The notes under the pieces were generated by a model. That model was given only the letters and a program-made list of their open reading frames with translations, made no database searches and was not told the DNA's origin. Positions 1-24,434 of a stretch of 64,000 nucleotides of DNA are shown here, in pieces. The translations under genes and the position numbers were made by a program. Numbering within the stretch: position 1 is the stretch's first letter; each line of letters begins with the position of its first letter. The DNA is from Alphaproteobacteria bacterium. GTDB lineage: Bacteria > Pseudomonadota > Alphaproteobacteria > MPNO01 > UBA830. Location of the stretch: assembly GCA_964291215.2 (NCBI GenBank), contig OZ219790.1, forward strand, positions 704,001 through 768,000, read 5' to 3'.

Positions 1-595
1 AGCGCGCATCCAGGATCAGGTATTTCATCAGGGGCCGGTTGCGCGGCGAGTTCTTCATCGAGCAACCTGGTGGCCCGGCTGACCTGAGAAGAGGACAGGC
101 TCCCGAACTCGCGCATTACATCTTCGGCTTGCCGCGTGGAAACACCCTTGATGTACATCTCGGCTACGGCCACGGCGCGAGAAGATCGCTGGCCGCGTTC
201 AAGCGACTGGGGGGGGGTCGTCCCCGTGACCGGCCGTCTTTGGTACCTGAACGGTAACAGTGGGGGTGTCGATCCGCTTGTAGCCGTTGGCATAGCCCTG
301 TCGCTCCGGTGGCCGGTGGCCCGCTTTCAAGTGCTGCTCGCGCTCGATTTGCATCGCAAGCTCGAAGAGCTGACCAAAGACCCGCCCCAGATCCGTTGCT
401 CCGTTTGCGATCAGATGTTCCAAAACGGCCTCAATCGTCGTAGTGTGTCGCAGCTCCATTCGCTTCCTCCATGAATGTTTTTCAACTCCATGGGATAGCA
501 CGATGGCGCCGCGTTTCACTGGGGGGCTAGCCCCCCAGTGAAACGCCTCAAAGCGCAAACCTCAGACAAATTTCCAGACATCAAGTTACAGTACC
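1..595 (-). mobile_element. IS256-family element, copy 1 (left end and 5' part of transposase; continues off the window edge), decayed
   Basis: Reverse complement of 1261-1850. The end GGTACTGTAACTTGATGTCTGGAAATT lies at 595. Translation gives ...ERQGYANGYKRIDTP...EMYIKGVSTR, typical of the IS256/Mutator N-terminus. Frameshifted. Confidence 0.92.
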
Positions 596-1260
596 CTGTA
601 AAAAAACCAGTCGCACGTAGTGCAGGTAAACGTTCGCCAGGCAGGGGCTGCGCCCTGCGGCGAACCAGCACCGGTGTCGCTCCATGACGCCAGCGTCACT
701 TGATGATCAGACCCCCCGATCCGTCTCTCGAGCATCGCGACCAGGTGGTCGCGGTTGTCGAAGAACCCGCGGGCGTCAACGATTCAGTTGACCTTCCGCC
801 GTTCCACCGTGACTGCATCGAGCGCGTTGTGCGTCCCGGCCGGAAACCATAACTGAACCCGAGGAACTCCGTCTCGCGGTACCAGAATCGTGTCCGTCAC
901 TGCCCACTGAAGAATCTTGTCCGAGGCAAGCGGTCGTTGCCCTCCATCCTCTTTGGGTATGTATACCCGACGGAGGCGCCCGCCCCTGTGCACACGGCAG
1001 GTCGACCAGTTCCACACCTTCCGCATACGCGTGCCACGTAACTCCGTCCACGCCCGCTGCCGCGTCCTTTCTCAAGGAGTGAAACGCCGCGTGCAGGACA
1101 TCACGTGGTGGAGCAACGTCACAAGACGCTCTTCCGGATTCCTCTTCGCAACTTGTCGTATGCGCCGCCTGTGACCCCCGCTTCTGCGCGCGGCGCGGGC
1201 CAACCGCATTTCCCTTCCCTCCAGCAGCTCCGCAGGCTCCGAGGAACCCTTTTTTTGTTC
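596..1260 (-). pseudogene. Group II intron reverse transcriptase/maturase fragment (RT0-RT4) plus upstream intron RNA, decayed
   Basis: Minus-strand frames give LLHHV..LRKDAAAGVDGVTW, RRVYIPKEDGGQRPL..DKILQ, HNALDAV..RKVN*IVDA-RGFFD, GSPQGA..LANVYLHYV. Contains many small deletions and a stop, and is cut by IS256 at 595. Confidence 0.88.
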
Positions 1261-1309
1261 GGTACTGTAACTTGATGTCTGGAAATTTGTCTGAGGTTTG
1301 CGCTTTGAG

Positions 1310-1345
1310 GCGTTTCACTGGGGGGCTAGCCCCCCAGTGAAACGC
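1310..1345. repeat. Perfect 36-bp palindrome inside the IS256 left end (also at 511-546)
   Basis: GCGTTTCACTGGGGGGCTAGCCCCCCAGTGAAACGC is its own reverse complement. Confidence 0.95.
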
Positions 1346-1995
1346 GGCGCCATCGTGCTATCCCATGGAGTTGGAAAAATTCATGGAGGAAGCGAATGGA
1401 CCTGCGACACACTACGACGATTGAGGCCGTTTGGGAACATCTGATCGCAAACGTAGCAACGGATCTGAGGCGGATTTTTGGTCAGCTCTTCGAGCTTGCG
1501 ATGCAAATCGAGCGCGAGCAGCACTTGAAAGCGGGCCACTACGAACGGACACCGGAACGACAGGGCTATGCCAACGGCTATAAGCCCAAACGGATCGACA
1601 CCCCCACTGTTACCGTTCAGGTGCCAAACGGTCACGGGGACGCCCCCCAGTCGCTTGAACGCGGCCAGCGATCTTCTCGCGCCGTGGCCGTAGCCGAGAT
1701 GTACATCAAAGGTGTTTCCACGCGGCAGGATGTAATGCGCGAGTTCGGGAGCCTGTCCTCTTCTCAGGTCAGCCGGGCCACCAGGTTGCTCGATGAAGAA
1801 CTCGCCGCGCAACCGGCCCCTGATGAAATACCTGATCCTGGATGCGCGCTACGAAAAAGCCCGCCATGACGGCGTTGTGCGCGATGTCGCAGTACTCTCG
1901 GCCATCGGAATAGGGGCTGCAGGCACGTTCTGGGGCTCTCTGTGGCGCTCTCCGAGGCCGAGGTCCATTGGAGAGCCTTCCTGGAAAGCTTGCTA

Positions 1996-3148
1996 GTCAC
2001 CTGAATCTAAAGTTCGTGGCATAAGTTTTGTTCGACGCGGAGACAGAAGCGCTTGACGGCGGCGAGGATTTCGTCGGCTGATTTGGTCCACTTGAAGGGC
2101 TTGGGATTTTCGTTGTGGGTTTCGATGAAGGCCCGGATGTCGGTTTCGAGTTGCAGGGTCGAGCGGTGGACGCCACGCTGCAACTGCTTGCGGGTCAGTT
2201 CGGCGAACCAGCGCTCGACCTGATTGAGCCACGAGGCGGATGTCAGCGTGAAGTGGACATGCCAGTGCGGCCGCCGTGCCAGCCAGACCGCCGCGGTTTT
2301 GTGGGTGGCATAGTTGTCCATGACGATGTGGATGTCGAGGCCGTCCGGGACATTGCAGTCGATCACCTTGAGGAAGTCGAGGAACTCCTTGGCCCGGTGG
2401 CGTCTGTTGCCGATGACCGCGCCGGTGGCGATGTCCAGCGCGGCGAACAGCGAGGTCGTTCCGTTGCGCTTGTAGTCATGGGTGCGCCGCTCAGGGATGC
2501 CGGGCAGCAGGACCGGCTGGGTGCGGGCCTGGCTCTTTTCGTCGACGCAGAGTACCAGCGCGCGATCCGGCAGCGAGAGGTAGAGGCCGACGATGTCGCG
2601 GACCTTGTCGACGAAGTGCGGATCACGAGAGAGCTTGAACGTCTCGGCCCGGTGCGGCTGCAGGCCGAAGGCGCCCCAGATGCGCCAGATCGACGTGTGC
2701 GACAGCCCCGCCTCCTTCGCCATCGAGCGCAGCGACCAGTGGGTCGCGTCCGCAGGCGTCGAGGTGAGCGTGCGCTCGATCACTTCCGCCACCTTCTCGT
2801 CTGCGATGCTCCGCGGGCGTCCCGGCCGGGGCTCGTCCGAAAGCCCCTCGATGCGGTCCTTGACAAAGCGCTTGCGCCACTTGCCGACGGTGTGCTCGTG
2901 CACGCCGATCTCTGCGGCCACCGCCTTGTTGCCAAGCCCGTCCGCGCAGCGCAGGATTATGCGGCAGCGATCCGACAGCGAGCGCGCCACACGGTGGCGG
3001 CGAACCTGCGCCTCCAGATACGACCGTTCCGAATTACTCAAGACCAGCACCGCCAAGGGCCGTCCCATACCGCGTGGCATCGCCATGACCTCCGTGTTCA
3101 CACTCCGACCGCCATCATACAATTATACTTACTTCAGTTCCAGATGAC
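1996..3148 (-). mobile_element. IS630-family element, copy A, inserted at CTAG in IS256
   Basis: TIRs GTCACCTGAATCTAAAGT / ACTTCAGTTCCAGATGAC. Flanked by TA (1994-1995) and a mutated CA (3149-3150). Confidence 0.95.
2007..3122 (-). CDS. IS630-family transposase (open frame but with several apparent 2-aa in-frame deletions; probably inactive)
   Basis: [44 protein letters not shown] (DDE). True start is probably nearer 3086. Confidence 0.9.
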
Positions 3149-23192: not shown

Positions 23193-24434
23193 CACGACGA
23201 TCCCATGCTAATCACCTGAATCTAAAGTTCGTGGCATAAGTTTTGTTCGACGCGGAGACAGAAGCGCTTGACGGCGGCGAGGATTTCGTCGGCTGATTTG
23301 GTCCACTTGAAGGGCTTGGGATTTTCGTTGTGGGTTGAAGGCCCGGATGTCGGTTTCGAGTTGCAAGGTCGAGCGGCCACGTTGCAACTGCTTGCGGGTC
23401 AGTTCGGCGAACCAGCGCTCGACCTGCACGAGGCGGATGTCGGCGTGAAGTGGACGTGCCAGTGCGGCCGCCGAACCAGCCAGACCGCGGCGGTCTTGTG
23501 GGTGGCGTAGTTGTCCATGACGATGTCGAGGCCGTCCGGAACATTGCGGTCGATCACCTTGAGGAAGTCGAGGAACTCCTTGGCCCGGTGGCGTCTGTTG
23601 CCGATGACCGCGCCGGTGGCGACGCGGCGAACAGCGAGGTCGTTCCGTTGCGCTTGTAGTCATGGGTGCGCCGCTCAGGGATGCCGGGCAGCAGGACCGG
23701 CTGGGTGCGGGCCTGGCTCTTTTCGTCGACGCCCAGCGCGCGATCCGGCGGCGAGAGGATGTCGCGGACCTTATCGACGAAGTGCGGATCACGGGAGAGC
23801 TTGAACGTCTCGGCCCGGTGCAGGCCGAAGGCGCCCCAGATGCGCCAGATCGACGTCAGCCCCGCCTCCTTCGCCATCGAGCGCAGCGACCAGTGGGTCG
23901 CGGGCGTCGAGGTGAGCGTGCGCTCGATCACTTCCGCCACCTTCTCGTCCGCGATGCTCCGCGGGCGTCCCGGCTCAGCCCCTCGATGCGGTCCTTGACA
24001 AAGCGCTTGCGCCACTTGCCGACGGTGTGCACGCCGATCTCTGCGGCCACCGCCTTGTTGCCAAGCCCGTCCGCGCAACGCAGGATTATGCGGCCGACAG
24101 CGAGCGCGCCACACGGTGGCGGCGAACCTGCGCCTCCAGATACGACCGATCGCTCAAGACCAGCACCGCCAAGGGCCGTCCCGTGGCATCGCCATGACCT
24201 CCGTGTTCACACTCCGACCGCCATCATACAATCATACTTACTTCAGTTCCAGATGACTAATTCAGAGACGCGAAATCCGAATGCGTTGAGGCTCGGCTCA
24301 TCACAGATCGCCTCCTTGATCGCAATTTTCGTGCCAAGAAAGTCCCATCGAGCCTTGGCAGCACGATTGCAGCGCGACGCAAACTGAGAAAATCTCGCCA
24401 GTCGTCGCCGGATTAGCAGCGTGGGATCATCGTG
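23193..24434. mobile_element. Putative MITE (about 193 bp without the nested IS630)
   Basis: TIRs CACGACGATCCCATGCT / AGCGTGGGATCATCGTG (15/17 match). Perfect 9-bp TSD CGGAAAAAC at 23184-23192 and 24435-24443. Confidence 0.85.
23211..24257 (-). mobile_element. IS630-family element, copy B, transposase destroyed by 16 small deletions
   Basis: Colinear with 1996-3148. TA duplication at 23209-23210 and 24258-24259. Confidence 0.95.

Follow-up and report, generated by a model that had tools for sequence, protein, structure and literature searches.

The window, the whole stretch of 64,000 nucleotides analyzed here, corresponds to G000:C1:704001-768000, in a 6.15-Mb assembly of two contigs. By k-mer repeat extraction, ~2.0 Mb of this genome fall into 1092 repeated regions. 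The housekeeping genes of the window are whole, and an Rfam search of the window gave no match. Pieces ~96% like the window flanks are present in the sponge metagenome run X1, and this alphaproteobacterium is likely sponge-associated. As presented in Table 1, the window carries two copies, A and B, of an IS630-family element and two pieces of an IS256-family element. The labels IS630, IS66, IS256 and IS110 were taken from Pfam, and the labels IS30 and group II intron are our own reading of translated motifs together with reverse transcriptase matches. Copy B is inserted within a MITE, and the empty site is found in contigs of run X13, which differs at 13 of 913 bases in one flank, and partly in those of X11. 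This MITE gave 124 BLAST matches, 92 of them across its right part; its more than 90 copies are flanked elsewhere by 9-10-bp direct repeats, and they show few 5-7-bp deletions although they are 3-15% apart. Other loci noted in the same genome are a repeated element with a DruA (DUF4338) domain and a DDE_Tnp_1-associated domain (G000:C2:460790-462700, L077) and a protein of 2068 aa rich in fibronectin type III repeats (G000:C2:1441246-1447452, L080), which has 14 related ORFs in its cluster.

Table 1. Features of the window and deletions of the two IS630-family copies relative to L201, an intact IS630 from another genome (deletions are given as the window position after which they fall, with the size in bp in brackets)
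Feature	Position	Strand	Basis
IS256-family copy, right part (other part beyond the window start)	1..596	+	one of five analyzed families
IS256-family piece, second, inverted	1261..1869	-	
Copy A, IS630 family	1996..3148	-	alignment to L201
Host MITE of copy B (~195 bp), left arm	23193..23207	+	genome BLAST
Copy B, IS630 family, broken transposase	23211..24257	-	alignment to L201
Host MITE of copy B, right part	24257..24434	+	genome BLAST
Deletions of A	2285(6), 2402(6), 2506(6), 2524(6), 2530(6), all in-frame		alignment to L201
Deletions of B	23335(5), 23375(6), 23426(7), 23482(6), 23521(6), 23593(6), 23622(7), 23690(6), 23708(6), 23714(6), 23732(6), 23758(12), 23818(6), 23856(6), 23902(6), 23971(6), 23976(7), 24026(6), 24093(7), 24148(6), 24184(7)		alignment to L201

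Global alignment of A (1996-3148) with B (23211-24257) gave 16 gaps, all in B and totalling 106 bp, at the positions that an earlier note on this DNA had read by eye, and BLAST gave 19 mismatches where the note had counted about 20 substitutions. The gap pair at 2827-41 can be aligned as 6+7, as first read, or as 9+4, and the 12-bp gap at 2581-92, thought to be plausibly 6+6, is a single 12-bp deletion of B against L201. This full-length element served as the outgroup for polarizing both copies, and it shows that A is not an intact reference, being itself eroded by five 6-bp deletions. The frame of A at 2007-3089 is open (360 aa, HTH and DDE_3) with 10 codons missing through these deletions, and A-family copies with open frames carry 6-bp deletions only. 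In comparison with L201, B has lost 136 bp in 21 deletions (one of 5 bp, 13 of 6 bp, six of 7 bp and one of 12 bp), and neither A nor B shows any insertion. As many as 19 of the 21 B junctions recur at one or more further sites in the assembly.

We observed the same sizes across the repeats of G000, where distinct indels of 1 to 10 bp numbered 397, 131, 87, 59, 359, 812, 459, 140, 104 and 38. Lengths of 5-7 bp account for 1630 of the 2996 distinct indels, so that the spectrum has the 5-7-bp peak that the earlier note had anticipated from B and no smooth decay from 1 bp. Symbiont pseudogenes, as described in the accessible part of PMC6054270, share with our genome an excess of deletions over insertions, frequent junction microhomology and a general lack of Ku and LigD. 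Their indel sizes, however, follow the power law falling from 1 bp, with some excess of multiples of three, that is expected in neutral bacterial DNA, whereas here lengths 5 and 7 are each 6-8 times as frequent as length 4 (59 events) and length 8 drops sharply. Among the rare long alleles, 59 of 76 are 5-7 bp long and none of these 59 is a tandem duplication, which indicates that the rare long alleles are ancestral rather than inserted and that the 5-7-bp events are deletions.

Microhomology at the junctions, which the earlier note had seen in some cases, is in modest excess over expectation: at least 3 nt were found in 259 of 812 6-bp events vs ~69 expected, and none in 201 of 812 vs 401 expected. 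As for the flanking motifs it had suggested looking for, a strict motif is absent and a weak end preference is present (AT 2.7x, TA 2.1x, GT 1.8x, TC 1.7x and CA 0.25x, with CG, CC and GG also avoided). In 424 unambiguous events, a multiplicative model using both ends beats an additive one-end model by 17 log units, and we infer from this preference at both ends that a symmetric two-strand cut may lie behind the deletions. Many of the deleted pieces of a second genome, G002, likewise begin or end with AT (35 events, by eye). Cutting centered on mismatches was discarded, as 51 of 761 positions inside deleted pieces are polymorphic vs 112 of 1552 outside. A footprint left by insertion and excision with a 5-7-bp target duplication was also discarded, the common families duplicating 2-4, 8 or 9-10 bp; an apparent 6-bp duplication is the 8-bp duplication of IS256, scarred. 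Inspection by eye of the indels of 16-30 bp (n=126) for hairpin micro-insertions gave no common family.

The peak was found again in G002, a species of the same genus ~72% alike in core DNA. In 400 kb sampled, 35 of 42 distinct indels were of 5-7 bp and 0 of 42 were 8-10-bp deletions. There the peak is seen among copies of IS630, of an IS66-like element and of a group II intron (33 of 35 polarized deletions among five IS66-like copies and 18 of 21 deletions among four intron copies are of 5-7 bp). In G003, 36 kb of alignment contained 486 mismatches and 0 indels. Loci from G031, G033, G034, G035 and a Cardiobacteriaceae genome together gave three events, one of them of 6 bp, against 3376 mismatches over ~340 kb aligned pairwise. 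The closest relative, G001 (93%), shows almost no 5-7-bp losses, scored in single-copy DNA only as its repeats gave 0 pairs. The copies of G032 are identical and uninformative; this genome has three IS630 copies in direct tandem (G032:C2:614874-618432) and a tandem pair at C4:642294-644666. From these alignments, two congeners (G001 and G003) and five other IS-rich genomes lack the peak, and the trait is patchy within one genus.

Single-copy DNA was analyzed with 735 kb of G001 (~5 Mb), of which 468 kb aligned to single-copy G000 DNA. We counted 55 places in 46 kb of non-coding DNA and 32 in 422 kb of coding DNA (87 in total) where G000 is the shorter of the two by 5-7 bp, and six and none, respectively, where G001 is; polarity is read here from this asymmetry, without an outgroup. 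No such asymmetry was seen for non-coding 1-4-bp losses (173 in G000 vs 161 in G001). The non-coding rate amounts to 0.018 deletions per branch substitution (1.2 per kb), and this DNA is close to neutrality (divergence of 13.1% vs 15.5% at 4-fold sites). The non-coding spectrum is softer than that of the repeats, with a tail at 8-15 bp, and 37 of the 87 single-copy events are without microhomology.

These data bear on a reading without any special nuclease, in which slippage or gap skipping would generate deletions of all sizes, mismatch repair would remove those of up to 4 nt, and longer ones would just be rarer. The lower edge at 5 bp fits the limit of bacterial mismatch repair, which repairs loops of up to ~4 nt efficiently and loops of 5-8 nt less so (accessible part of PMC2504288), and the excess of microhomology, the 8-15-bp tail and the stutter scars at IS256 ends described below, which reveal a slipping polymerase, go in the same direction. 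We nevertheless regard this reading as very unlikely. The upper edge is sharp, with 10, 3, 10, 0 and 1 rare deletions of 5, 6, 7, 8 and 9 bp and none of 8-10 bp in the G002 sample, and a large share of the single-copy events lack microhomology. Moreover, MutS is found in 29 of 31 relatives, yet G001 and G003 have no peak, and the spread of deletions between copies is left unexplained.

Several B junctions were also found in run contigs. A contig of X11 crosses 23911-24150 with no gap and 0 differences, at a depth of 226 vs 43-48 in the unique flanks, and a contig of X12 crosses 24001-24182 without a gap; undeleted alleles are present in other contigs of the same runs. The sequences from X11, X12 and X13 are contigs and not raw reads, and their support is not independent, the runs coming from a single study in which the source sample may be included. 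An assembly or polishing artefact could take advantage of this, the support coming from contigs only and the three runs with the junctions from a single study. We give such an artefact hardly any credence: housekeeping frames are intact, 29 of the 32 coding losses are of 6 bp and thus in-frame, which requires selection, and the junctions occur in run contigs at several times the single-copy depth. In addition, the same peak is present in G002 and in neither G003 nor five other informative long-contig genomes. We therefore consider the B deletions and the genome-wide peak to be confirmed as real, G002 being the independent confirmation of the peak.

We then compared how often new deletions arise in repeats and how many the repeats carry. 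In five families (280 copies), there were 31 private 5-7-bp deletions per 1060 singleton SNPs; when their junctions were checked, 10 passed, seven were found elsewhere and 14 were absent from the genome, being artefacts of the consensus family alignments. Genome-wide, with a looser SNP filter, we counted 58 private deletions per 9066 SNPs. The private rate in repeats is thus 0.006-0.03 per private SNP vs 0.018 in single-copy DNA, and new deletions are not aimed at repeats, because private events are no commoner there than in single-copy DNA. The origin is genome-wide and slow, at ~0.02 deletions per substitution. The load has another profile. The number of 5-7-bp indels per SNP was 0.025, 0.030 and 0.062 in families of 2, 3-4 and 5-9 copies, and 0.114, 0.184 and 0.235 in those of 10-29, 30-79 and 80 or more copies. 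Some members of the two-copy class may be functional genes subject to selection, and this flattens the low end of the curve. By comparison, 1-4-bp indels per SNP are flat over copy number (0.04-0.06). The median copy has 9-19 deletions of 5-7 bp, with 17-33 SNPs (two families counted twice), and 277 of 280 full-length copies of the five families have at least one deletion of 5 or 7 bp; the elements are thereby inactivated. Overall, the fixed-footprint process that the earlier note had proposed exists, is lineage-specific and breaks mobile elements.

The mode of action that it had suggested, an attack resembling fungal repeat-induced mutation (RIP), fares differently. A defence that recognizes repeats and makes fresh 5-7-bp deletions in every copy would account for the roughly tenfold rise of the load with copy number, for the frameshifting deletions in almost every copy and for one heavily deleted IS630 copy described below. 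Against this, the private rate is not above that of single-copy DNA, which carries the same deletions, 19 of the 21 B junctions are shared, a young subfamily of G002 comprises eight identical intact copies, and a Piwi domain was found in none of the five genomes G000-G004 (prokaryotic Argonaute targets multicopy DNA). We consider such a defence quite unlikely, and de novo attack on B or on the repeats is not upheld.

The distribution of alleles among copies suggests instead that the load in repeats likely arises from the transfer of existing deletion alleles between copies. Deletions present in more than half of the copies make up 65 of 179 of those of 5-7 bp vs 7 of 80 of those of 1-4 bp. At 63 sites, 1997 of 2074 deleted copies share exactly the allele of the site, and 57 of the 63 sites are at least 95% pure. 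Within 20 nt, mean D' is 0.39 for deletion-SNP pairs (85 pairs) vs 0.66 for SNP-SNP pairs (150 pairs), the pairs not being independent and many C>T changes, which represent 623 of 1060 singleton SNPs, possibly being recurrent. SNPs were polarized by majority, except in G002. As seen in the assembly only, the copies are mosaic and linkage is near background past ~40 nt. In the IS66-like copies of G002, shared alleles make up 23 of the 33 5-7-bp deletions and, by comparison, 73 of the 188 derived SNPs; one long copy has seven deletions, all in common with heavily deleted relatives, and another copy has none.

Two nearly intact IS630 copies of G000, C1:443550-444726 and C1:198570-199745, are 99% alike to L201, with 11 mismatches, and 99% identical to an IS630 copy in G031; they represent a recent horizontal arrival. 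In these copies, one resident 6-bp deletion is present and the resident SNP 3 nt away is absent, which is a single event. The copy at C1:199745 also shows a ~7-nt tract with resident-type alleles. Biased transmission is suggested by the frequency spectrum, by linkage and by two nearly intact copies.

The heavily deleted IS630 copy (G000:C2:2152059-2152970; L310:2560-3471) has ~39 gaps in comparison with L201 and few SNPs. About 25 of its junctions are unique in the assembly and end at the element border; it occupies the same MITE position as copy B, and over its first 130 bases the flanking MITE shows no deletion. A burst would explain this pattern. These junctions may also be alleles of a wider pool, because pieces with some of them are present in X11, X12 and X13 contigs; X2 showed nothing, and stretches of the copy that no contig covers carry no weight here. 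The more general possibility is that bursts riddled a few master copies, or that deletions recur at fixed hotspots in transposition, and that unbiased conversion then shuffled the alleles. In addition to the heavy copy, it can call on the predominance of singletons among SNPs, as following an expansion, and on the microhomology of frequent deletions (mean 1.9-2.1 vs 1.2 for singletons, two families counted twice), which would be expected of hotspots. Unbiased conversion should, however, decouple deletions and SNPs equally, contrary to the D' values, and a footprint varying between 5, 6 and 7 bp should give mixed alleles where 57 of 63 sites are pure. Furthermore, several DDE families and a group II intron are affected alike, and nearly intact copies acquire resident alleles only. 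We hold this possibility to be unlikely.

We also observed scars at the ends of IS256 copies. In G000, the sixth base beyond the element lies in a run of at least 4 at 46 of 110 right ends vs 5 of 114 left ends. In the window, an A-run stands a few bases beyond the right end of the copy at 1..596, and a 7-base run (~1250-1256) a few bases outside the right end of the second piece. The right flanks (e.g. 597-610 and 1236-1260 of the window) show, at a fixed distance of six bases and at this end only, homopolymer stutter, base loss, or tandem repetition of the terminal IS bases together with six bases of the flank. Among 26 IS256 copies with a recognizable target duplication, 13 lose the match beyond base 6, often with stutter or a re-copied end. 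The scar position coincides with the predicted priming site of copy-out replication, and the scars fit error-prone priming at the copy-out intermediate. Polymerases of the IEE type stutter similarly, according to the available part of 10.1101/2023.06.07.543989. Homopolymer runs beside IS30 and IS630 were rejected as stutter, since they reflect target choice, and the IS256 flanks of G030, taken as a control, provided no clean ends. In G000, 53 of 79 IS256 end pairs are without matching target duplications (some of the pairs take in two or more elements), and a number of left flanks correspond to the right flank of a copy far away; these observations point to many rearrangements through IS copies. 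The element also contains a perfect hairpin with a central CTAG (511-546 and 1310-1345 of the window), whose G/C runs vary in length among copies and into which an IS630 family often inserts.

The scars raise the question of whether the IS256 transposase, through its 5-7-nt circle spacer, or a PrimPol of the IEE type makes the deletions at stray sites. By analogy, the match between spacer and deletion size may well be called striking: circle spacers of 5, 6, 7 and 19 bp are given, with ISCth4 acting best with 6 (available part of PMC7780238), and ~110 IS256 ends are present in G000, with scars lying 6 nt beyond the right end. IEE, a slippage-prone polymerase at copy-out intermediates, lengthens primers through reiterative slippage and agrees with the flank scars in kind, but it excises whole elements (10.1101/2023.06.07.543989, in its accessible part). 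No IS256-family match was found in G002 (98% complete), which has the peak, and G030, with 43 matches, shows hardly any indels at the loci examined. An intact IEE gene is absent from G000, which keeps an AEP-TOTE remnant of ~50 residues (G000:C2:1964033-1964239; L116, L163) beside a GNAT/DUF-type pair, and none was found in G002. IEE matches are present in G030 and in G001, the latter a long match at a contig end (L150). We judge this source highly improbable and largely refuted by G002, barring a lost element that acted in its past.

No enzyme family that we searched separates G000 and G002 from G001, G003 and G004. Among the candidates put forward in the earlier note, Ku/LigD, Argonaute and loss of MutS/L or RecA fail to account for the deletions: in addition to the missing Piwi domain, Ku was found in 0 of 19 genomes of the family and an ATP-dependent (LigD-type) ligase in 0 of 5 genomes, while MutS, MutL and RecA are present in G000. 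RecA, UvrC and MutS occur in G000-G004 and DinB in four of these five, and G000 also has PolI, RecJ, RecG, RuvABC and ExoVII. Of 32 E. coli repair proteins compared with G000, 29 were matched; rmuC, ung and sbcD were without a match, and the RmuC and UDG families are nonetheless present. The short-deletion signature of topoisomerase IB appears where TopIB is present and RNase HII is lost; TopIB was found in none of G000-G004, and RNase HII is open in all five genomes. NucS/EndoMS cleaves at mismatches with a 5-nt stagger, and it had no match in G000 and weak partial matches in G002. Type I restriction enzymes, which may leave 6-7-nt overhangs, were rejected as not confined to the genomes with the peak (HSDR_N in 11 of 11 genomes, EcoEI_R_C in 7 of 11 and not in G002). 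We also rejected a PolI defect, polA being whole with polymerase and proofreading regions that align across the five genomes, and reverse transcriptases, which are present in G000, G001 and G002 and do not separate the groups.

Taken together, we favor, at slightly better than even confidence, a low-rate 5-7-bp deletion across the chromosome by a double-strand nuclease with a ~6-nt footprint, followed by deletion-biased conversion through the repeats. In the first step, which we put forward tentatively and at somewhat less than even confidence, the nuclease would cut both strands ~6 nt apart in a staggered, two-fold symmetric manner with a weak end preference, anywhere on the chromosome and at a low rate. 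The ends would be trimmed and rejoined without Ku or LigD, 1-4 nt of microhomology helping. In the second step, which we consider reasonably probable, paired repeat copies would form heteroduplex DNA in which a 5-7-nt loop exceeds efficient MutS repair. The loop would be excised from the long strand with the neighboring mismatches not carried along, and the short allele would win because the loop is removed from the longer strand. As deletions are copied between repeats, high-copy elements would fill with shared scars. As a guess, both steps could be the work of a single structure-specific nuclease acting on loops or bubbles. It is conceivable, if rather doubtful, that such a nuclease was acquired, seeds the 6-base deletions and drives them through repeated DNA of any kind, is maintained by selection as a defence against IS elements and group II introns, in a deletion-based parallel to fungal RIP, and was gained at least twice in the genus or lost in the sister species.

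This process is RIP-like in outcome and would resemble biased gene conversion in mechanism; it is not RIP in mechanism. As in fungal RIP, any repeated family is ruined and the load depends on repetition. RIP, however, introduces new C-to-T mutations specifically in duplicated DNA, whereas here the repeat-dependent lesion is a 5-7-bp deletion, the origin is genome-wide and not raised in repeats, and the load is likely built by allele transfer. With intragenomic or biased gene conversion among IS copies, known in a GC-biased form, our data share mosaics, four-gamete violations, linkage that decays with distance (in the assembly only), alleles at high frequency and the presence of RecA. Here, the bias would favor the shorter allele where loops measure 5-7 nt, neighboring SNPs would not follow, and linkage is gone past ~40 nt. 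Loop handling independent of mismatch repair, including loop removal, has been reported in E. coli extracts (PMC2504288, accessible part). This large loop repair resembles our proposal in removing loops beyond the range of MutS; as far as that part of the source goes, it concerns loops of up to hundreds of nt in assays, and neither a force acting on repeat families nor new deletions of fixed size. Helicobacter pylori microimports are very short conversion tracts too (mean 28 bp), but they come from transformation in a species deficient in mismatch repair, and the accessible part of PMC9426483 reports no deletion bias. We found no description of the phenomenon in the openly accessible literature, subscription journals being outside the scope of this search.

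A 5-7-bp peak that is on or off within one genus points to an unrecognized cutting or repair activity. The signature is easily scored in any complete genome, so that the responsible gene should be traceable by co-occurrence. Of the two steps, the spread outweighs the origin in importance. If short alleles drive through repeats, the host would disable more than 100 mobile copies without selection on each of them, and the working life of newly arrived elements would be limited. This bears on the loss of IS from IS-rich genomes, on how the deletion bias of bacteria arose and on estimates of IS age from sequence.
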